UHGV virus genome: UHGV-0140091
DNA: 35,268 nucleotides
Source: a virus
Reading direction: 5' to 3' (one strand)
Position numbers and translations under genes: made by a program
Notes under the pieces: generated by a model
The model's input: only the letters and a program-made list of their open reading frames with translations
Told to the model about the DNA's origin: nothing
Database searches by the model: none
Shown here: in pieces, positions 1-16,388 of the stretch
Layout of the letters: each line of letters begins with the position of its first letter
Position numbering within the stretch: position 1 is the stretch's first letter

Positions 1-284
1 TAAAGACTCTCTTAGAAAGCCCTTAAAGATGCCCACCTTATTAATCATACCGTGGGCGAGTACGCCAAATTCTTTGATGAGGGATTGGAAGACCTCACTG
101 GTGTTTAGCCTATCAAGCTACTGCCAGAAAAACATTGTCGTTTGCATTTATTTTAAATTTGCAAAATAGACGCTACGCAACGAAAACTATTCAGAATATG
201 TACAACAAATTTCCCCACATTGTGTTACGTCTAACGCTCATGTATTGGTGTTTGAATTATACATATGCTGAATCATTTTCAGTT

Positions 285-314
285 ACTATAAAGTAGTCAC
301 ATCTTAATGTCAAC
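285..314 (-). promoter_or_regulatory. sigma70-like promoter candidate reading leftwards out of the tRNA array
   Basis: Minus strand TTGACA (309-314), 18-nt spacer, TATAGT (285-290). Confidence 0.4.
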
Positions 315-328
315 AACTTTATTGAAAT

Positions 329-404
329 TGGTACTGGTAGGTGGAATCGAACCACCGATGTTCCCTTATCAGGGGAGTGTTATAACCTTCTTAACTATAC
401 CAGC
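329..404 (-). tRNA. tRNA-Ile (anticodon GAT)
   Basis: Minus-strand cloverleaf: acceptor GCTGGTA/TACCAGT, D-arm GTTA/TAAC, anticodon loop CTGATAA, T-arm GGTGG-TTCGATT-CCACC, encoded CCA. One C-A mismatch at the base of the anticodon stem. Confidence 0.75.
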
Positions 405-405
405 T

Positions 406-482
406 TGGAGGTTCAGATGGGAATCGAACCCACATTCATAGGGCTTATGAGACCCTTGCATTACCTTATCTGCGACTGAACC
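406..482 (-). tRNA. tRNA-Met (anticodon CAT; initiator vs elongator vs Ile-lysidine not resolved)
   Basis: Acceptor GGTTCAG/CTGAACC, anticodon stem AGGGT/GCCCT with loop CTCATAA, T-arm GTGGG-TTCGATT-CCCAT, encoded CCA; 1 nt from the neighbouring tRNA. Confidence 0.8.
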
Positions 483-486
483 ATAT

Positions 487-562
487 TGGTAGAAGTGGAG
501 GGATTCGAACCCATCGCCTGTCAGATTAAAAGTCTGCCGCATCACCATTCTGCTACACTTCC
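487..562 (-). tRNA. tRNA-Lys (anticodon TTT), non-canonical T-stem
   Basis: Acceptor GGAAGTG/CACTTCT, anticodon loop CTTTTAA, T-loop TTCGAAT, encoded CCA. T-stem has only 3 GC pairs plus two mismatches. Confidence 0.55.
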
Positions 563-577
563 ATTAAATTATCTTTG

Positions 578-700
578 TAGATAAGCTACCCAGACTTGCT
601 TAAGGTCTGTAGCGATGTGCCTTGTTGGGTTTAAATCTAGAATTTACCCTTTCACCCTTTGTGGTCGCATACTCACAGGTAAGCTTAATAACTTATCTAC
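578..700 (-). ncRNA. candidate structured small RNA (~123 nt) closed by a long terminal helix
   Basis: Perfect 9-bp terminal pairing GUAGAUAAG (700-692) with CUUAUCUAC (586-578), extendable with a bulge (AAGCU/AGCUU). No ORF. Starts 8 nt after a GGUCUGG helix strand, the same spacing seen before two tRNAs. Confidence 0.35.
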
Positions 701-708
701 AAAGATAA

Positions 709-846
709 TTACCAGACCGTTGTTTATCATCTTAAGTGCTACCATTACACCAACTCGACATCTGCCGAGTGAAGGAATCGAACCTTCGCCTTTTCTTTAC
801 CGGAGAAATAGATTGTTTAAGTTTTGCTGTAAACGGTCTTCTGTAA
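709..846 (-). ncRNA. candidate Y RNA-like RNA with circularly permuted tRNA-like domain
   Basis: 5' strand UUACAGAAGACC (846-835) and 3' strand GGUCUGGUAA (718-709) form a bulged helix. Between them, in order: T-arm GAAGG-TTCGATT-CCTTC (787-771), acceptor 3' strand ACTCGGC (770-764), 4-nt loop, acceptor 5' strand GTCGAGT (759-753), TG, D-arm GTGT-AATGGTA-GCAC (750-736). No anticodon arm. Confidence 0.5.
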
Positions 847-853
847 ATTTGTT

Positions 854-933
854 GAGCCAGACCAAGTTTTAAATTTTCAAAATTAAATTGGCTTGAAATT
901 TCATACGTACTTGCTGTAATTGGTCTTCTGCTC
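854..933 (-). ncRNA. bulged-helix RNA module, copy b
   Basis: GAGCAGAAGACC (933-922) pairs with GGUCUGGCUC (863-854): upper helix AGACC/GGUCU, internal loop AGA vs G, lower helix GAGC/GCUC. Ends 7 nt upstream of the Y RNA-like element. Confidence 0.4.
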
Positions 934-1016
934 CTTTAAAGAATACTCGTAAGAACTCTTTAAGGGAGGGGCTAAATAGCCCTCTCAAACATCATTTTGA
1001 AATACTTATTATAATT

Positions 1017-1094
1017 TGGCGGTTACGAAGGGACTCGAACCCTCATCATCTCCCGTGACAGGGGAGTATTTTAACCATATTAAACTACATAACC
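1017..1094 (-). tRNA. tRNA-Asp (anticodon GTC)
   Basis: Acceptor GGTTATG/CGTAACC, perfect anticodon stem CTCCC/GGGAG with loop CTGTCAC, T-arm GAGGG-TTCGAGT-CCCTT, encoded CCA. Confidence 0.8.
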
Positions 1095-1100
1095 TTTATT

Positions 1101-1188
1101 TGGTGTGCCGTGTAGGAGTCGAACCTACCGAGTCTCAATGACAAGGGATTTACAGTCCCCACCGCTACCATCTACGGGATAACGACAC
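1101..1188 (-). tRNA. tRNA-Tyr (anticodon GTA), class II with long variable arm
   Basis: Acceptor GTGTCGT/ACGGCAC, anticodon stem GGGGA/TCCCT with loop CTGTAAA, ~15-nt variable arm, T-arm GTAGG-TTCGACT-CCTAC, encoded CCA; 88 nt. Confidence 0.75.
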
Positions 1189-1197
1189 ATTTAAATT

Positions 1198-1274
1198 TGG
1201 CGGTTAGTCAGGGATTCGAACCCTGTGCCATTCGCTTAACAGGCGACCGCACATACCTTATGTGCTTCCTAACC
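1198..1274 (-). tRNA. tRNA-Asn (anticodon GTT)
   Basis: Acceptor GGTTAGG/ACTAACC (one mismatch at 7:66), D-stem GCAC/GTGC, anticodon loop CTGTTAA, T-arm CAGGG-TTCGAAT-CCCTG, encoded CCA. Confidence 0.7.
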
Positions 1275-1282
1275 TTAATACA

Positions 1283-1348
1283 TTGCCAGACCGTGTTTTT
1301 TCTTTTATCCGCAAAAAGTATTTTGTTGCTGAATACGGTCTTCTGCAA
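1283..1348 (-). ncRNA. bulged-helix RNA module, copy c
   Basis: UUGCAGAAGACC (1348-1337) pairs with GGUCUGGCAA (1292-1283). Lies 3 nt after the CCA of the upstream tRNA and 8 nt before the 5' end of tRNA-Asn. Confidence 0.4.
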
Positions 1349-1351
1349 AAT

Positions 1352-1428
1352 TGGAGGCGGGTGCAGGAGTCGAACCTGCCGATACCATGCTAATGAGACA
1401 TGTGAGACGCCCTTTCTCTATACCCGCA
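1352..1428 (-). tRNA. tRNA with anticodon CAT (Met/Ile2-type), non-canonical; possible pseudo-tRNA
   Basis: Perfect T-arm GCAGG-TTCGACT-CCTGC, acceptor 3' ACCCGCC + T + CCA, anticodon stem CATGT/GCATG with loop CTCATTA. But T1-C72 mismatch, A at position 8, U at position 37 and a 6-nt variable loop. Confidence 0.5.
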
Positions 1429-1437
1429 ATTCTTAAT

Positions 1438-1515
1438 GACCAGACCAAATCTCTTCTTTGTCCGATTTACCTTCAGATGAATAAGATTAAGTTTGCTGTA
1501 ATTGGTCTTCTGTCA
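1438..1515 (-). ncRNA. bulged-helix RNA module, copy d
   Basis: UGACAGAAGACC (1515-1504) pairs with GGUCUGGUCA (1447-1438). Lies 4 nt after the CCA of tRNA-Glu and 8 nt before the next tRNA. Confidence 0.4.
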
Positions 1516-1519
1516 AAAC

Positions 1520-1597
1520 TGGTGTTCCAGAAGGGATTTGAACCCTCAAATATCCACTTTGAAAGAGTGGTGACTTTACCATTTTGTCTACTGGAAC
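1520..1597 (-). tRNA. tRNA-Glu (anticodon TTC)
   Basis: Acceptor GTTCCAG/CTGGAAC, perfect anticodon stem CCACT/AGTGG with loop CTTTCAA, T-arm GAGGG-TTCAAAT-CCCTT, encoded CCA. Confidence 0.8.
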
Positions 1598-1604
1598 ATT
1601 AATT

Positions 1605-1681
1605 TGGTCTCTGTTGGAGGACTTGAACCTCCGGCCTTACCGCCCCAAACGGAACGCTCTACCAAGCTGAGCTAAACAGAG
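1605..1681 (-). tRNA. tRNA-Pro (anticodon TGG)
   Basis: Acceptor CTCTGTT/AACAGAG, D-arm GCTC-AGCTTGGTA-GAGC, anticodon loop TTTGGGG, T-arm GGAGG-TTCAAGT-CCTCC, encoded CCA. One T-T mismatch in the anticodon stem. Confidence 0.7.
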
Positions 1682-1707
1682 ATAAACTTTTCAAACTCTA
1701 TGTAACC

Positions 1708-1737
1708 ACTTTAACATTATTTTTTAGTGATTGTCAA
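1708..1737 (-). promoter_or_regulatory. sigma70-like promoter candidate upstream of the tRNA array
   Basis: Minus strand TTGACA (1737-1732), 18-nt spacer, TAAAGT (1713-1708). Confidence 0.4.
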
Positions 1738-1799
1738 GAACTTTTTTAAAATATTTTTCAGTATCTTAGAAAAGCTCTTATTTCGTTTCTATGTAGAAC

Positions 1800-1829
1800 A
1801 TATTAAAGGGTATCAAACACATTGTCAAT
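1800..1829 (-). promoter_or_regulatory. sigma70-like promoter candidate upstream of the tRNA array
   Basis: Minus strand TTGACA (1829-1824), 18-nt spacer, TAATAT (1805-1800); sits between the stop of the vWA gene and the first tRNA. Confidence 0.5.
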
Positions 1830-1846
1830 ACCCTTTTTAAAACTTT

Positions 1847-3261
1847 TTACCAGATATAACGGTCAATCATTACTGCTTTGAGCATTACGCTGATTGGGTC
1901 AAACTTCTCACCACCAAGCAGAGCTTTTAAAGTGGCTGGAGAGAAACCAGACACCATTGCTACACCGTTATCCTTAACAGATACTTCGCAAGTGCCATTA
2001 CGGTTTGCTAAGTACCAGAATACCAGTTGTGGCATCTCATATCCAGCTTTTTTGTACTTGCTCTGAATTGCTTCAAAGTTTGTACGACCGTTAGCTCCAT
2101 CAACCTGATTGAACTCCATATCAGAGAAGATGATAAGCTTACTTGGCATATCTTTCTGAGTCAAGTTGTTTCTTTTACCTGTCTCAAGAATACGGTCAAA
2201 AGCTGCTTGTAAGTTAGTTGAGCCATATTCAACGTGTCGCATCACCTGACGATGACGGTTTCGTAAATCACCACTCAGTTCAATGAAGTGAGGGTTTGTT
2301 GAATAAACCATCAACTCATTCTTAAAGCAACCTGTATTACGTTCTGCTACATACAATGCAAGTGAAACACCAATATCAAGAGCAGTAATTGAACCAAAAT
2401 TCACCCAAGACATTGAACTTGAAACATCAGACATACATAGAATGTTTTCACCCTCTGCCATCCAGTTTGGTAGTGCTTTCCACTGCTCATTAGCAACATC
2501 TGCATTACCATACTTAACAGATTTAATCACATCGTATGGGTAAACAGCACCAGCATTAATCTTAGCCTCACCCTTTGATAATGACTCGATGTAAGCTTTG
2601 TAGCGTTCTCCATCTTTACGGTTAAACAGTTTTTGGTAACGTGCAGCAGCAAGTGAAGGAATCTTACTGTAGTCAATCTTACCAAACTCATTAGCAGAGA
2701 TTTTTTGCTCAACTGTATCAGATAGTGCAGACAACAGTGTGCGGTACTCTTTCTCACTCAAGTTTGCAAACTTGCAGAAACGTTTTACAAACTGTTTGTG
2801 ACGTGGTTTTACTCGTGGTAACCACTTAGCTGCTAAACCTGCTGTTGCAGGGTCTAGTAATGCTGCTTCTAAATGTTTGAAGGCATCTGTCTCGAAACGA
2901 GTACCTACAAAGATTTTGAAGTCATCAAAGCGACCAAGCTCTGCAATCTTATCCATAATGCGAAGAACCTGCGTAGGTTCTAAAACTTTATCTTCAATCG
3001 CTTGAAGTAAAACAGTTCGGAAAGCTTTACGCTCACCATACCTTCTCGTACATCTCGCATATGCAGTAAAATACGAACTGCAACATCAACATCCTCATGC
3101 AAAGCTTTGTAGAACAGGTCTGGTAAGATTTCTACATTGCTACGGCTTGAACCAGCAGCTTTGTAAAAGTCTACAAGAGCAGACATTGATGAAGTATGGT
3201 TTGCAGCACCATTTTCAGTTCGACCTGCATGAAGGTGCGCATGTTTAAATAATTCGCTCAT
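1847..3261 (-). pseudogene. vWA-domain protein with N-terminal helical domain (DUF2828-like by recollection; Ro60/TROVE-like architecture), split by a -1 frameshift
   Basis: Two ORFs (2980-3261 and 1847-2956) overlap in different frames. The downstream frame stays open upstream of its ATG to ~3130 and reads YGERKAFRTVLLQAIEDKVLEPTQVLRIMDKI. Joining ...RDVREG to YGERK... at ~3038-3042 restores one ~470-aa protein. C-terminal part has the vWA MIDAS motif DVSSS. Confidence 0.6.
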
Positions 3262-3291
3262 ATTTTACTCTCTTCTCTCATTTGTTTGTTG

Positions 3292-3336
3292 GTGTGACAG
3301 ACTTTAGAGCAACTTTGTAGAGTCTGTCAACACCTT
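3292..3336 (-). promoter_or_regulatory. promoter candidate embedded in an inverted repeat, upstream of the vWA gene
   Basis: Minus strand TTGACA, 18-nt spacer, TAAAGT; the whole element lies inside a 13-bp inverted repeat GGTGTGACAGACT / AGTCTGTCA(A)CACC. Confidence 0.45.
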
Positions 3337-3342
3337 TTAAAA

Positions 3343-3714
3343 TTATTTTTTGAGAGTCGCTACAGCAGAGAACGTTGGTTTGTTATCTGTCTGAGACTGA
3401 CCACCATTATCAGGGGTCTTCTTAGTGTCTGCTGCAATCGCTTTCATCTCACCTGCTGAGTGAGTCATGATGGTTTTACCAGCCTCCATCATCGACTTCA
3501 GGTTTACATCGTCAGTCGTCAAACCGAACTCTGCAAGCTTAGCAGCATCCCTTGTAACAACCGCCTCAAACAACTTTGCAGCAAACTCAGCAGAATTATC
3601 AATGGTCAGTTGAGCTTTTACGAGTGAGCTTTTGTTACGAGAGCCTTTTGGTCTTCCAGATGGGTTTCCAGACTGGCCTTTTTTAAACTGGCCTTTGTTT
3701 GTTCTGTTTTTCAT
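3343..3714 (-). CDS. hypothetical protein with N-terminal GNPSGRPKG basic motif
   Basis: 123-aa ORF with AAGAGG ribosome-binding site upstream of the ATG. Confidence 0.6.
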   Translation of the reverse strand: MKNRTNKGQFKKGQSGNPSGRPKGSRNKSSLVKAQLTIDNSAEFAAKLFEAVVTRDAAKLAEFGLTTDDVNLKSMMEAGKTIMTHSAGEMKAIAADTKKTPDNGGQSQTDNKPTFSAVATLKK

Positions 3715-3729
3715 TGGTATGCCTCTTAT

Positions 3730-3810
3730 AAGACCTCTTAAAAGGCTTTTAAGATAAAAGATAGATATCCAGAAAGATATCTGTTTAAATAGCCTTTTTA
3801 GAGGAACCTT
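3730..3810. promoter_or_regulatory. divergent intergenic control region with dyad symmetries
   Basis: Inverted repeat AGATATC-N6-GATATCT (~3762-3781) and CCTCTTAAAAGGC / GCCTTTTTAGAGG; lies between the minus-strand block (3714) and the plus-strand block (3964). Confidence 0.35.
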
Positions 3811-3963
3811 TTAAGTTATCTTCTAAGTATTTATAAGCCTACACCTTGTCAAGTACTTTGTCAACAACTTTTTTAACTTGCAATAGTTCTTGACTTGTTG
3901 TATGGATTACTGTACCATCTTACTTAAAGCTGTAGGTCTGCCTTGTTCTACAAAGGAGACTTA

Positions 3964-4125
3964 ATGAGAAAATCAAATAAACCGAAGAAAGGTAAGAATA
4001 CCAATCACTGTAAGGAATCAAAAAGGGTAGAGTTAATCTACTATTCATCCTCTGAAATTGGTCTGTACCTGTTCTTTCAAAATTACAGAAGACAAGAGGA
4101 TTATCTATGTGTAGTTCCCAATTAG
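3964..4125 (+). CDS. small hypothetical basic protein
   Basis: Tracked ORF 3943-4125; AAGGAG ribosome-binding site sits just before the ATG at 3964, so the start is probably there. Confidence 0.35.
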   Translation: MRKSNKPKKGKNTNHCKESKRVELIYYSSSEIGLYLFFQNYRRQEDYLCVVPN

Positions 4126-4340
4126 AAATCGCAGATATTATAGATTTATATCAAACTGCAAAGAGTCATGGCTATATAACCTCAATTGGAAAGAATAGTC
4201 ACTATGATGCTTTGACTGGAATGTATTTCAGGGCAATGGCTCAATCTAGTGAACAACACTTAATGGTTTCTTCCAGTGAGTTTACTTCGTTTCTCTATTG
4301 CAGCAAAATTATAAACCGCAGGAGAACTGAAAAATGTTAA
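4107..4340 (+). CDS. hypothetical protein
   Basis: 77-aa ORF, overlaps neighbours by a few codons in operon fashion. Confidence 0.35.
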   Translation: MCSSQLEIADIIDLYQTAKSHGYITSIGKNSHYDALTGMYFRAMAQSSEQHLMVSSSEFTSFLYCSKIINRRRTEKC

Positions 4341-4924
4341 CAGTAAGTTTTAATTACAATAGTGATGGCTCTGTATCAATTAATTCACCATATGCAAATG
4401 ACCTGCTTAAAGAGCTAGTCAATCAGTGTGATAGAGGTCTTCACTATGTTCAAAATTCTTTTAAACAGAAGACTATTGCTAATAACTTGATGCGTGTAAC
4501 AGTGACGGCATCTAATCCAAATTATGACTTTGATAGTGAAAGTCCGTATTCATTAGTTGCGCTTGGAGAGAGCAGCCAATTCAAACTTGTTTGCCACGAC
4601 TCAGAAACATTCCTTAAGGTATTTTCCAACCTTATCCATAATAATAAGTACAGCTACGTTGATGGTAGTGTAAATTTCTATCCAGCAAACTATACATGTT
4701 TGTTGGTTGATAATATGAGAAAAAGTAAGCAAGAGCCTACGGAAATTTCATTTGATGTGAACTCTAGTCCAGATGCAGAAACAAGTAAGAACTTTGATAT
4801 GAGTTACGCATTGTCACTCAGTAAGAAATCCGAGTTCATTGATTATGTCAATGGATTTGGTTTTAAGTTTGATGAGAGTATGAATCTTAAAAAACTTAAG
4901 AACCTACTTAAGACCAAAGCTTAA
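4334..4924 (+). CDS. hypothetical protein
   Basis: 196-aa ORF in the plus-strand operon. Confidence 0.6.
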   Translation: MLTVSFNYNSDGSVSINSPYANDLLKELVNQCDRGLHYVQNSFKQKTIANNLMRVTVTASNPNYDFDSESPYSLVALGESSQFKLVCHDSETFLKVFSNLIHNNKYSYVDGSVNFYPANYTCLLVDNMRKSKQEPTEISFDVNSSPDAETSKNFDMSYALSLSKKSEFIDYVNGFGFKFDESMNLKKLKNLLKTKA

Positions 4925-4971
4925 GTGTGAATAGGGGCTTATGCCCCTTTAACTATTTATAAGGATATTTA

Positions 4972-5343
4972 ATGAAAGCTAAGAGTGCAAAAGACTTTTA
5001 TTGCTTCCTACAATCCTATATCAATTCCGTGCAAAATGGTGAAAGGTACAACCTTAATGATGTTATCCCAACACCTTTGACATGGAGACTCAGTAAATGG
5101 CCTGAAGAAGATATTACACCAACAATCGAACAGCGTACCTACAAACCTGAAATCAATATTCCAGACTCTGAGAATCTATTATACCCAATGTTCCATATTG
5201 TTGGTCTTGGAAGATTCCTTATGGATATCCAGTATGTAATTGGTAAAGGTTATAAGGTTAAAGGTATTGTCGTTGGTGATGTATCTCCGAATCACAAAGG
5301 TTATTTTAGACTAAACGCACATTTAGAGGCTGAAAAGAAATGA
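4972..5343 (+). CDS. hypothetical protein, paralog of the N-terminal domain of the next gene
   Basis: 123-aa ORF; aligns along its length with residues 1-~110 of the 5340-6224 product (shared RY, LTW/YWPE, YKP, ELLY, F(L)MD(I/L)QY segments). Confidence 0.65.
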   Translation: MKAKSAKDFYCFLQSYINSVQNGERYNLNDVIPTPLTWRLSKWPEEDITPTIEQRTYKPEINIPDSENLLYPMFHIVGLGRFLMDIQYVIGKGYKVKGIVVGDVSPNHKGYFRLNAHLEAEKK

Positions 5344-6224
5344 TTAAAGCAAAGACTTACCCAGACTTCAAAGAGTTTGTGAAGGGCTTCATTGCAAACG
5401 TAAAGGCTGGTAAGAGATATGATTTTAGAACATATCAAGAGGCTATTTTACCACTTACCTATAGTTCATATTGGCCTGAAGCTGATATTGCAGAAGTTGA
5501 GAAGTTTGACTACAAACCAGACTACAAAGTCCCATTTAGTGATGAGTTGCTTTACAGCGTTGGTGCTCAAATGAGAACTTCTGACTTCTTCATGGACTTA
5601 CAATATGCAATTATCAATGGTAAAGATGTTGATACAGTTTATTGTGAATGGCTGGCAAGGGTTAAACCATTCTCAATGTTGAATGCTAAGTTGAAGGATG
5701 CTATCAAGCCACCAGCAATTACTCAGCAGCCAACAGGTCAAACAGTTAATGAGGGTGGCACACTTACTCTAACCATTCTAGCAACTAACGCCACTGGATA
5801 TCAGTGGAAAAAGGATGGTGAGGACATCCCTAGTGCCAATTCTGCAACTTACACAAAACAGTCAGTAGCACCTTCTGACGCTGGTTCATACACTTGTGTT
5901 GTATCTGGAGAAGGTGGAACAAGTGTTACCTCAGATGCAGCAACAGTGACTGTGAATGCACTACCTGTGATTACCAAGCAACCTTCTAACCAGACTATTA
6001 ATGAAGGTGGAAACATCAACTTAGCAGTTACTGCAACAGGTGCAACAGGTTACCAGTGGAAGAAAGGTGAGGAAGATATACTTGATGCAACCGCTGCAAC
6101 TTACACTAAAGAAGGTGCAACCGCTGCTGATTCAGGAAGCTACACCTGTGTAGTTACTGGTGCAGGTGGCTCTGTAACATCTAATGCAGCAACAGTTACA
6201 GTTAACCCAGCAGGGGAGGCATAA
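5340..6224 (+). CDS. hypothetical protein with two C-terminal Ig-like repeats
   Basis: 294 aa. Two ~80-aa tandem repeats, each with NEGG, GYQWKK, ATYTK and GSYTCVV motifs, resembling phage Ig-like (I-set/Big-type) domains. Confidence 0.7.
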   Translation: MIKAKTYPDFKEFVKGFIANVKAGKRYDFRTYQEAILPLTYSSYWPEADIAEVEKFDYKPDYKVPFSDELLYSVGAQMRTSDFFMDLQYAIINGKDVDTVYCEWLARVKPFSMLNAKLKDAIKPPAITQQPTGQTVNEGGTLTLTILATNATGYQWKKDGEDIPSANSATYTKQSVAPSDAGSYTCVVSGEGGTSVTSDAATVTVNALPVITKQPSNQTINEGGNINLAVTATGATGYQWKKGEEDILDATAATYTKEGATAADSGSYTCVVTGAGGSVTSNAATVTVNPAGEA

Positions 6225-13301: not shown

Positions 13302-13565
13302 TTACTGCATGTTGGCGTATGTTGCAAGCCTTTTTTCGTTGTATTTTGTCAGAATCTCACAAGATAAAACATCATATTTTGTAACCGCTTTGCCTTTGTC
13401 GAGGTCAAAGAATCCGAACGCTTTACCGTCTTTGAATCCGACAACTTCGTAAGATTCTTTAATGATTTCACCATTGAACAAATCACTTTCGATGCGGTGG
13501 AATAATGCTACATCCTCTTTGTCGGTTGCAATTTGTAAAAGTGTGGTCAGTTCGACGTGTTCCAT
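13302..13565 (-). CDS. hypothetical small protein
   Basis: 87-aa ORF preceded by the conserved repeat. Confidence 0.6.
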   Translation of the reverse strand: MEHVELTTLLQIATDKEDVALFHRIESDLFNGEIIKESYEVVGFKDGKAFGFFDLDKGKAVTKYDVLSCEILTKYNEKRLATYANMQ

Positions 13566-13630
13566 TTTGAATCTCCAGTTTAGGATTTTATTTAGTGGGG
13601 AAGGTCATTCCCTCCCCGTTGATTGACAAT
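13566..13630 (-). repeat. conserved intergenic repeat (PeSL-like), variant 1
   Basis: Same core; hairpin GGGGAAGG-TCATT-CCCTCCCC; near-identical to the copies at 14724 and 18468. Confidence 0.7.
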
Positions 13631-14161
13631 TTACAGATTTTTGATTGTCTCGTCAATATCTTTTTCAATATCTTTTAAAGTTTTTTCTAAGTTCTTGATA
13701 TTGAACGTTAAACCTTCACCGAGAGTCTTATGGTGACCATTAGGTCTATGTTCATAGAGTTCGATTTCTTCCACATTGGATAAGTTTACCATCTCACCAT
13801 TTGCAGCATAGGCTATTGACACAGTATTTTCAGGTGCGTCGTAAAACTTGTTTAAGGACTTGATAGAACGTTCATAAGCCATTTTATAGCTGTTTAAAAG
13901 GTTTTTAACGTGGCTGTGAACGTTTTTACACTCATCTAAGTAAAGACCTAAAAACATCGGGAGAAGTTCCGCGACAGCTTGCATAAAGTGAGAGACTACA
14001 ACGGTTGCAACATTACGACGATGAACGTAATAAGCCCCGTTTTCTGATTTGGTAATGGTTGCAAAGTGTACCCCATTACAACGAAATTCATAGGTATCTT
14101 TAACAGGTTTAGACATTACATTATTTGAACGAATATAGTTGATAGCTTTGAACTTGTTCAT
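13631..14161 (-). CDS. hypothetical protein
   Basis: 176-aa ORF preceded by the conserved repeat. Confidence 0.6.
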   Translation of the reverse strand: MNKFKAINYIRSNNVMSKPVKDTYEFRCNGVHFATITKSENGAYYVHRRNVATVVVSHFMQAVAELLPMFLGLYLDECKNVHSHVKNLLNSYKMAYERSIKSLNKFYDAPENTVSIAYAANGEMVNLSNVEEIELYEHRPNGHHKTLGEGLTFNIKNLEKTLKDIEKDIDETIKNL

Positions 14162-14233
14162 TTTAGAATCTCCTAGTTTAAGGACTTTACTTAGTAGGGA
14201 GGTTATCCCTCCCGTTGATTAGTAATTTACTTG
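14162..14233 (-). repeat. conserved intergenic repeat (PeSL-like), variant 1
   Basis: Core plus hairpin GGGAGG-TTATC-CCTCCC. Confidence 0.7.
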
Positions 14234-14381
14234 TTTTGATAGCTGATTGCAAGCAATTTTTTAAGTTTATCTATAAAGAATCTTTTAAGTAAATCCCTTT
14301 TAGATAAACCCCCTCGAACAAATGTACTATTGTCAAGGGGTATCGTCAAGTAATTTTTTAAAGTTTTTTGTAAGTTATTGA

Positions 14382-14723
14382 TTAACTGATGAATATTTTT
14401 TCAGGTTTTACATAGCTGATACGCTGATTTTTTAGTAGGCTATCCCATAACAAGGCGGCAATGTGCCCATATCCGGCCTCACGCAGCCCCTTCATCGTTT
14501 CAACTCGACTCTCAAAACGATTTGCGTAATACTCGCTATTAAGTGTCGTTTTGTTCCCTTCGTTATCTGTATGGATGATTTGCATCACTTGAAAGGGGCT
14601 GACATCCTCGCCTTTGTTCCACTGCTCAAAGTATTTTAGGCACTGCATAGGTGACATCTTATCACTTACTTGAGTTGACCAAGATGAATCTTCTTTATCG
14701 GTAATTACAGTTACATAAGCCAT
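14382..14723 (-). CDS. hypothetical protein
   Basis: 113-aa ORF preceded by the conserved repeat. Confidence 0.6.
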   Translation of the reverse strand: MAYVTVITDKEDSSWSTQVSDKMSPMQCLKYFEQWNKGEDVSPFQVMQIIHTDNEGNKTTLNSEYYANRFESRVETMKGLREAGYGHIAALLWDSLLKNQRISYVKPEKIFIS

Positions 14724-14800
14724 TTTAGAATCTCCTAGTTTAAGGACTTTATTTAGTGGGGAAGGTCATTCCCTCCCCGTTGATTGACAATTTACAGACT
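14724..14800 (-). repeat. conserved intergenic repeat (PeSL-like), variant 1
   Basis: Core plus hairpin GGGGAAGGTCATTCCCTCCCC. Confidence 0.7.
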
Positions 14801-14814
14801 TTTATCAGGCTTGT

Positions 14815-15048
14815 CTAGTCTTTTTCAATGATAATTTCATATTGACCATCGACACTGTCAAAATAGACGCCGTCTTCATCTTCTGTCTTAAAGTAGCATT
14901 GAATATCATCACTGGCGGGATAGTCTTGTCTTGCTATCTGGCAAACTTGAATAGCATTTTCTTTACTCCCTGTAAACTCCTCAAGCCCTTTAAAATCACA
15001 TGAATGACCATTACAAATGGAAAGGATGAGATAAATGGTTGTAAGCAT
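14815..15048 (-). CDS. small hypothetical protein with hydrophobic N-terminus (possible signal peptide)
   Basis: 77 aa starting MLTTIYLILSICNGHSC; GAGGG ribosome-binding site; preceded by a different hairpin (GGCCC-TTTAC-GGGCC) rather than the conserved repeat. Confidence 0.5.
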   Translation of the reverse strand: MLTTIYLILSICNGHSCDFKGLEEFTGSKENAIQVCQIARQDYPASDDIQCYFKTEDEDGVYFDSVDGQYEIIIEKD

Positions 15049-15111
15049 GATTTAAGCCCTCTAAATGGCCCTTTACGGGCCTTAAGTTGGAAGTTGGTGT
15101 CTTTGTACTGA

Positions 15112-15675
15112 TTAACCTAAAAAGTCTTTTAAATTGCGTTCTGTGATGTTTGCCGTGATTTTATCCAGCAGGTCACAAAACACGGAACTATCACCGCTAT
15201 TCTGTACAATTTTCGCCATACTTAACAAATCATCGTCAATATAGCCTAAATTGCGGTTAGTTGCATCTGGTACAAAGAAAGGCGCATACATCGCACTAAA
15301 TTTCGTCGAGTGAAGGCCAATAATCCAATCTTTATCAAAGTGTCCGGTAAAGCTGGCGATATCGCTCATGTTGTCACAAGAATAATCATCCTCTAGCTCT
15401 TCCTCTGGGATATCCATCTCAATGACAATTACGTCCTGCGTTTCCATTTGGAAAGCTGCCGTAATAAGCCCAGATTCTAAAGCGTTTTGAATGCAGCGTT
15501 CACGAATGTAAGAATCTTCCTCATCTTCCAGACATTCCGTTTTGATAATCTTGTTCATTGGGTAAACGTAGAAACAATCATCCATGTATGAGCAGTTCCA
15601 GATTCCTTCCGGCTTGTCGCCACCATTCAGCAGGTTTACAAAGTTTTTGAGGGTAGTTCCGTGATAGCATTTCAT
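15112..15675 (-). CDS. hypothetical acidic protein
   Basis: 187-aa ORF preceded by the conserved repeat. Confidence 0.6.
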   Translation of the reverse strand: MKCYHGTTLKNFVNLLNGGDKPEGIWNCSYMDDCFYVYPMNKIIKTECLEDEEDSYIRERCIQNALESGLITAAFQMETQDVIVIEMDIPEEELEDDYSCDNMSDIASFTGHFDKDWIIGLHSTKFSAMYAPFFVPDATNRNLGYIDDDLLSMAKIVQNSGDSSVFCDLLDKITANITERNLKDFLG

Positions 15676-15764
15676 TTTTGAATCTCCAGTTTAGGATTTA
15701 GTGGTAAAGCTCTTTATCTGGGGCTTACTTTATCGAACTATAAGCCCCTTGTAAAGTACTTTAT
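15676..15764 (-). repeat. conserved intergenic repeat (PeSL-like), variant 2
   Basis: Core plus AGCTCTTTATCTGGGGCTTA...TAAGCCCCTTGTAAAGTACTTTATT. On the minus strand TTTACA-17 nt-TAAAGT overlaps the hairpin. Confidence 0.7.
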
Positions 15765-16010
15765 TTAACTTTTTTTTGAGAAAATTAGTTTAACTGCAAC
15801 TGTAGGAATCTCGTCAGCGGTTGTAACCAGCATTACTTTTTGAGTGACCAACTTATAACCGTTCTTTGCAGCGTATGCGGTAAAACGGTTGACATTGTAA
15901 CTATAAGTTTTTGGTGTGTTGTCTGGCATGTGGTAAAGAAAAGGTTTACCCAAGTTTTCTTCTTGTGTCAATAGTCGGCAGGTATCAGGGATATTGAAAT
16001 AGTTCATCAT
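15765..16010 (-). CDS. hypothetical small protein
   Basis: 81-aa ORF preceded by the conserved repeat. Confidence 0.55.
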   Translation of the reverse strand: MMNYFNIPDTCRLLTQEENLGKPFLYHMPDNTPKTYSYNVNRFTAYAAKNGYKLVTQKVMLVTTADEIPTVAVKLIFSKKS

Positions 16011-16101
16011 TTTTTAATCTCCTAGTTTAAGGACTGTGTAAAGCTCTTTATCTGGGGCTTAAGATATCAGCTTTTAAGCCCCTTGTAAAGTACTTTATTA
16101 C
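16011..16101 (-). repeat. conserved intergenic repeat (PeSL-like), variant 2
   Basis: Variant-2 copy with hairpin GGGGCTTAA-GATATCAGCTTT-TAAGCCCC. Confidence 0.7.
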
Positions 16102-16299
16102 TTAATTTTTGACAACTTTTAAAACTGCAAGATAACCTAAGCAATAAGAATCACCGAAGAGAGTTCTACCCATGAAAGAATCCTCTTTGATATCCTTTGC
16201 AGTGACAGTTTTTTCTACGCCGTGGGAAAGGACTACATCACCAACTTTGATATCTTTGATGTGTGTTGTTTCAATGGTTAAGCCGTTAATAATAGCCAT
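16102..16299 (-). CDS. hypothetical small protein
   Basis: 65-aa ORF preceded by the conserved repeat. Confidence 0.5.
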   Translation of the reverse strand: MAIINGLTIETTHIKDIKVGDVVLSHGVEKTVTAKDIKEDSFMGRTLFGDSYCLGYLAVLKVVKN

Positions 16300-16370
16300 T
16301 TTAGAATCTCCTAGTTTAAGGACTTTATTTAGTAGGGAGGTTATTGCCTCCCCGTTGATGTGTAATTTAA
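16300..16370 (-). repeat. conserved intergenic repeat (PeSL-like), variant 1
   Basis: Core plus hairpin GGGAGG-TTATTG-CCTCCCC. Confidence 0.7.
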
Positions 16371-16388
16371 TCTATCTAAAAATCAGTG

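Follow-up and report, generated by a model that had tools for sequence, protein, structure and literature searches.

The stretch of DNA analysed here (the window; 35,268 nucleotides) is a fragment of a Felix-O1-type myovirus of the genus Felixounavirus, and is a contig of the ENA metagenome assembly ERZ1753435 with a coverage of 6.17. The region of the gene described below matches 252 phage records, the best of them at 97-98% identity. The features of the locus are as follows.

1847 to 3261, minus strand: the complete gene with its frameshift (1415 nt), orthologous to the Felixounavirus DUF2828 and DUF7788 gene of 1416 nt and 471 aa (Bas63 gene 130)
2980 to 3261, minus strand: ORF1, 93 aa, native Met1-Met75 followed by 18 out-of-frame residues (VSVKLSELFYFKRLKIKF) and TAG at 2982-2980
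1847 to 2956, minus strand: ORF2, 369 aa, native residues 103-471
2957 to 3037, minus strand: codons of native residues 76-102 (GERKAFRTVLLQAIEDKVLEPTQVLRI), intact in the downstream frame
3036 to 3037, minus strand: frameshift site, GG left from an ancestral GGG (ATG-GGT to ATG-GT) in the codon of the invariant Gly76
2980 to 3088, minus strand: the sole stretch where a -1 shift could join the frames, from the downstream-frame TGA (3088-3086) to the upstream-frame TAG (2982-2980)
3301 to 3330, minus strand: Sigma-70-like promoter, TTGACA-18-TAAAGT, upstream of the gene, at a place where a promoter is annotated in phage ASO1B
329 to 1681, minus strand: nine canonical tRNA genes (Pro, Glu, Met, Asn, Tyr, Asp, Lys, Met, Ile), downstream of the gene, detected with ARAGORN and Rfam

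The ORFs at 3261..2980 and 2956..1847 both derive from a single 471-aa gene. When the locus was aligned with three close relatives, the junction proved to read ATGGGTGAG in the relatives and ATGGTGAG in the window, one G of the GGG run being gone. A single CDS of 1416 nt and 471 aa lies at this place in garuso, ASO1B, ECML-1, KhF2, fjerdesal and Bas63. When the intact 471-aa ortholog of fjerdesal was used in tblastn, residues 1-75 matched the window in one frame (97%) and residues 76-471 in the other (99.5%), indicating that the ORF pair is not a product of chance. An earlier note on this DNA, made from the sequence alone, had described a single-base frameshift that splits one vWA/Ro60-like gene, and both the alignment with the relatives and the two-frame tblastn match bear this out. 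The -1 relation between the frames was read correctly as well: G3037 serves both to close the Met75 codon ATG and to open the Gly76 codon GGT. As the note wrote, the downstream frame stays open 5' of the ORF2 ATG and encodes Y-GERKAFRTVLLQ...; it does so up to a TGA at 3088-3086. Its placement of the shift at 3038-3042 was approximately right and 1-2 nt off, the shortened G run lying at 3037-3036. The part of that interpretation that did not hold concerns the neighbouring RNAs and is taken up with the tRNA genes below.

Translation from the normal start yields the 93-aa fragment, which ends ...HMRDVREGM followed by VSVKLSELFYFKRLKIKF and meets its stop 18 codons past the shift. The remaining 396 codons are intact, with no start before Met103. 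The codons for residues 76-102 have no preceding ATG, GTG or TTG in the downstream frame, and these residues are absent from both ORFs. ORF2 holds the C-terminal part of a TROVE-like helical domain and a vWA domain with the MIDAS-type motif D279-x-S281-x-S283.

With the missing base put back, the protein matches Pfam PF11443 (DUF2828, N-terminal and middle part; 102.3 bits) and PF25043 (DUF7788, C-terminal and vWA-like; 148.8 bits), both above the gathering cut-off. Taken separately, ORF1 scores 29.1 bits against a cut-off of 29, and ORF2 scores 70.4 and 149.5 bits. The repaired protein had no match to Pfam TROVE, to NCBIfam or, by sequence, to PDB, and a literature search on DUF2828 returned nothing useful. 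An AlphaFold (AF2) model of an intact ortholog that is 98% identical (pLDDT 87, pTM 0.88) was compared with PDB using Foldseek. The 12 best matches were all Ro60/TROVE proteins (E = 3e-8 to 4e-6, query-normalised TM-score 0.49-0.66), namely Xenopus and human Ro60, Deinococcus Rsr and the Ro60 of Thermus phage phiLo, with isolated vWA domains coming next. The intact protein is therefore predicted by the model to have the Ro60/TROVE plus vWA fold, a helical ring followed by vWA. The vWA/Ro60-like label of the earlier note is thus supported at the level of the fold (Foldseek, and Pfam DUF2828 plus DUF7788), the sequence itself being without a TROVE match. Compared with Ro60 and Rsr (PDB 1YVR, 2I91 and 2NVO; phiLo 9L5Y), the modelled full-length structure is alike and the vWA D-x-S-x-S motif is common to both, whereas sequence identity is 11-16%, the window gene belongs to DUF2828/DUF7788 and not to Pfam TROVE, and no Y-RNA family is found nearby.

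The family comprises 2474 hits, with members in Yersinia and Vibrio phages, among others. Among the matches listed that cover the whole query, all are single polypeptides of ~470 aa, down to ~40% identity; the ortholog comparison proposed in the earlier note was thus carried out, and orthologs consisting of two genes with matching boundaries were not found. Residues R69, D70, R72, G74, G76, E77 and R78 are invariant in 47 aligned homologs, down to 40% identity. By descent the window gene is an ortholog in this family, although not an intact one, as it does not encode a single ~470-aa polypeptide with the RDxRxGxGER motif.

The deletion hits the G76 codon inside this invariant motif (R69-D70-x-R72-x-G74-x-G76-E77-R78). 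Neither ORF product contains G76-E77-R78 or the helix 78-90 of the model that follows, from which we infer a null allele or a severely hypomorphic one. A different outcome could be imagined in which the two pieces, of 93 and 369 aa, join to form a working protein, with termination-reinitiation 24 nt past the TAG giving rise to the 369-aa one. The ORF1 stop (2982-2980) is only 24 nt before the ORF2 ATG at 2956, a distance compatible with reinitiation, and the two ORFs are undamaged in all lineage members seen. The lineage, however, is too young for this to carry weight, there being no divergence across the gene. Moreover, the 27 residues missing from both pieces (76-102) include, besides the invariant G76, E77 and R78 and the helix 78-90, the nearly invariant R82. 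The ORF2 start, Met103, sits in the middle of the model helix 96-109, the ATG at 2956 has no Shine-Dalgarno-like sequence beyond that of intact relatives, and a two-gene organisation occurs in none of the listed homologs (2474 hits). A functional split gene is accordingly a highly unlikely reading of the locus.

We then asked who carries the deletion. All 198 GenBank Felixounavirus records that matched a 71-nt junction query differed from it by that one gap and none was 100% identical. In IMG/VR, 20 contigs had the intact allele and none the deletion allele, and the deletion allele was not found in GTDB genomes. Given the absence from the 198 GenBank relatives, a sequencing error was first assumed, namely that the phage truly has GGG and that the consensus lost one G of a homopolymer. 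The window contig has a coverage of only about 6x, the change is one of homopolymer length, and another homopolymer change specific to the lineage is present in the window at 22476-22482 (A6 to A7), all of which would suit such an artefact. The assumption was dropped after the frameshift product had been recovered from 49 contigs in many assemblies. In ENA/Logan, the exact frameshifted 93-aa product, its 18 out-of-frame residues included, occurs on 49 contigs; for the 369-aa product the number is 38.

The deletion is present in at least eight separate assemblies (a count of assemblies, not of cohorts) that are 99.6-100% identical to the window: ERZ1753435 (the window), ERZ1767432, ERZ1753109, ERZ1749482, ERZ921555, ERZ28667797, ERZ27230296 and ERZ506880. 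ERZ921555 corresponds to SRR1197733 of PRJNA240307, a human gut sample, and ERZ28667797 to SAMN02675520; no useful literature was found on PRJNA240307. The carrier assemblies were made with SPAdes-type and MEGAHIT-type assemblers and have 5.7-15x coverage where the contig name gives one. Between positions 1 and 4500 the sole difference between the carriers and the window is one SNP at 2160. Further along, at 4504-5369, the differences from two contigs of the lineage (L011 and L012) cluster, with 9-18 substitutions and a 3-nt indel between identical flanks; this patch covers the 196-aa and 123-aa ORFs and looks like a small recombination event. The 93-aa product is listed in 60 blocks of the sequence collection, against 348 for the neighbouring DUF5681 gene.

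Recurrence of the same allele in different samples, with different assemblers and at up to 15x coverage argues against a lost base, as does the restriction of the allele to one haplotype, the 198 GenBank and 20 IMG/VR sequences with an identical local context all being GGG. An allele that sits on one haplotype and reappears in independent read sets is best taken as a real inherited deletion. An error-ridden contig was likewise ruled out: when the 51 CDS of fjerdesal were placed on the window by tblastn, the Ro60-like gene alone was split across two frames, showing that the contig is not riddled with indel errors. The A7 allele, for its part, is also present in a 98.9%-identical contig from another biosample. 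Together, these sequence comparisons indicate that the deletion is inherited within a near-clonal gut lineage and that an assembly error is very unlikely. The earlier note had left open a sequencing indel, a true pseudogene and a programmed frameshift. The first of these is made very unlikely by the carrier assemblies and the second is favoured, as the indel is derived, is inherited across independent samples and removes conserved residues, in line with a pseudogene or null allele. The third, recoding, is not supported.

A programmed -1 frameshift was rejected on the basis of a scan for heptamers and tetramers and of RNA folding, neither of which was convincing. The required -1 event is confined to 106 nt (3085 to 2980), and this overlap contains no X_XXY_YYZ slippery heptamer. 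It does contain three tetramers that allow single-tRNA slippage, U_UUA at 3069 and A_AAG at 3027 and at 2988. In E. coli, A_AAG acts as a weak site for -1 shifts. The downstream 111 nt gave no significant fold (z = -0.75), 42 of 200 shuffled sequences folding at least as well. The two-frame arrangement is not conserved either; in GenBank, among the homologs and in IMG/VR, every relative outside the near-clonal lineage has the gene in one frame. The locus resembles known cases of programmed -1 frameshifting (dnaX, IS elements, the phage tail-chaperone G/GT) in having two overlapping ORFs related by -1, but it differs from them in having no heptamer, stimulatory structure or conservation, and in that the shift falls in an invariant motif and not at a domain boundary.

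Some full-length protein could nevertheless be imagined to arise by a -1 ribosomal shift, by doublet decoding at GGU-AUG-G or by polymerase slippage. The downstream 396 codons are there to be read, slippage-prone tetramers are present in the overlap, and a shift exactly at GGU_AUG_G would recreate REG(M/Y)GERK. That shift is the only one that rebuilds the motif, and it falls where tRNA-Met cannot re-pair (AUG to UAU); slippage at each of the three tetramers would substitute invariant residues, either G76/E77/R78 or R69/D70/R72/G74. For transcriptional slippage, GG is too short a run. Over 150 nt aligned at the junction with the intact gene of ASO1B, the window differs, besides the missing G, by one base ~60 nt downstream, indicating that nothing in this stretch is adapted to a shift. 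A lineage-specific suppressor tRNA was also considered and rejected, since phages with an intact gene have the very same tRNA-Gly(UCC). Recoding of the gene is therefore extremely doubtful, although in a weaker variant the allele may yield a little full-length protein through unconventional -1 decoding at GGU-AUG-G.

Compared with its closest intact ortholog, that of ASO1B, the repaired gene has 31 nucleotide differences, of which 28 are synonymous and three amino acids are changed. The excess of synonymous differences points to purifying selection until recently and hence to a young deletion. The lack of decay besides the missing G suits a recent knockout, and it suits a gene still in use equally well. 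The allele may keep some residual function. Within the lineage there is no variation with which selection could be tested, the gene being identical in all members except for one SNP. As the lineage is common (60 blocks), loss of the gene is not obviously costly.

Other Felixounaviruses appear to carry truncations of the gene at a different site. The A6 run GAGCAAAAAATC, at codons 185-188 (about 2698-2709 in the window, where it is intact), is a recurrent putative frameshift site; truncated products of 116-245 aa, at least seven of them distinct, change sequence beyond VEQK. These putative alleles include CAD5160347.1 of phage Barry (244 aa), in which the same gene is truncated, as in the window, by a one-base homopolymer indel, the site differing in that it is the A6 run of codons 185-188 and not the GGG run of codons 75-76. 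Putative independent truncations of this kind fit a dispensable gene.

The intact counterpart for which a role has been described is gene 130 of Bas63 (Escherichia phage JohannRWettstein; MZ501086). The repaired protein is 97% identical to it (458/471), and the two genes lie in the same place, after the DUF5681 gene and before tRNA-Pro and the tRNA array, and have the same 1416 nt and 471 aa once the window is repaired. In the PhageMaP preprint, Bas63 gp130 is described as resembling Ro60; a gp130 deletion mutant is viable and is impaired only on a host expressing Ppl, a defence consisting of an ATPase plus a PHP domain, where its plaques are tiny and are restored by complementation, and gp130 moved into T7 led to better growth of T7 on the Ppl host (PMC11482910). 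The copy in the window, one G short at codon 76, is unable to encode the protein at full length, and the anti-Ppl role was shown for Bas63 gp130 only.

Taken together, we consider it probable (roughly 80%) that the locus carries a genuine heritable one-base deletion (GGG to GG, Met75/Gly76) in a Ro60-like accessory gene, a recent loss-of-function allele. One G would have been lost in a Felixounavirus lineage from human gut metagenomes, leaving the 93-aa fragment and a remainder without a start. The intact ortholog, Bas63 gp130, can be dispensed with on laboratory hosts and is required only when the Ppl defence is present. With the gene needed only against Ppl, a phage could lose it and still spread where Ppl is absent. 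The sharing of the allele and the splitting of its frames are direct observations, whereas we infer the loss of function and its neutral or advantageous nature. An adaptive loss seems unlikely: a host defence common in gut E. coli would sense the Ro60-like protein or its RNA complex, and the knockout lineage, which also has a frameshift at the start of the 'polynucleotide kinase' gene of a neighbouring module, would thereby have evaded the defence and come to be present in many human samples. Selection for loss may have acted, the evidence here neither supporting nor opposing it.

If the deletion is read as a recent knockout, the window offers a phage knockout in natural circulation, affecting a Ro60-like protein tied by a screen to Ppl evasion. 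At least one successful lineage would do without the gene in the human gut, in agreement with the view of such genes as a 'conditional toolbox'. Annotators would do well to label the locus as a disrupted gene, and neither as two genes nor as a frameshift site. Beyond the natural knockout, it would be a case of ordinary gene decay, a new instance of a known process.

The downstream tRNA array is a conserved gene neighbour in all relatives examined. The earlier note had proposed adjacent tRNA-mimic RNAs as partners of the protein, and this did not hold up: Y RNAs or tRNA mimics beside the gene were rejected, since ARAGORN and Rfam find canonical tRNAs there, with Rfam scores of 48-64 bits (threshold 29). 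When positions 1-4500 were scanned with Rfam by E-value, no Y-RNA family matched, and besides the canonical tRNAs there was only sub-threshold noise. The identity of some neighbouring tRNA genes as Y RNAs is speculation of the authors of the Bas63 study (PMC11482910). The Ro60-like protein may still have a novel RNA partner. Between the tRNA genes there are sub-threshold RNA matches, a partial tRNA (22 bits) and a weak permuted-tmRNA-like match (22 bits), at 770-820 (minus strand) and 113-280, which may be tRNA remnants; in ASO1B a 129-nt 'tRNA-Thr' is annotated in the corresponding gap.

Several observations were made elsewhere in the window. At 22471-22485 (minus strand) the window has A7 where 209 GenBank relatives have A6, right after the ATG of a gene that is annotated in relatives as a putative polynucleotide kinase (231 aa). 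The site reads ATG AAA AAA ATT AAG AAA GTC TGA, and the longest ORF left is 215 aa, from TTG 22435. The upstream homolog of an SLT-like 'lysin' ends three residues early in the window. This A7 allele is heritable, the exact 179-aa product being present in 50 collection blocks, including the 98.9%-identical contig.

At 15800-20200, tblastn gave no match for five small genes of fjerdesal (fjerdesal_40, 41, 48, 50 and 60), and fjerdesal_33, 38 and 46 are among several genes that are only 40-62% identical to the window, as is usual for the mosaic early region. The Ig-domain gene at 5340-6224 encodes 294 aa here and 377 aa in fjerdesal and several metagenome relatives, and close relatives appear to differ in how many Ig-like repeats they have. 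Finally, in the small-gene region at ~13560-18530, a motif of ~60-100 nt (…GAATCTCC(T)AGTTTA(A)GG…) followed by a GC-rich hairpin is repeated in many intergenic gaps. It was seen as off-diagonal BLAST matches and occurs likewise in KhF2, where nearby hairpins are annotated as terminators.
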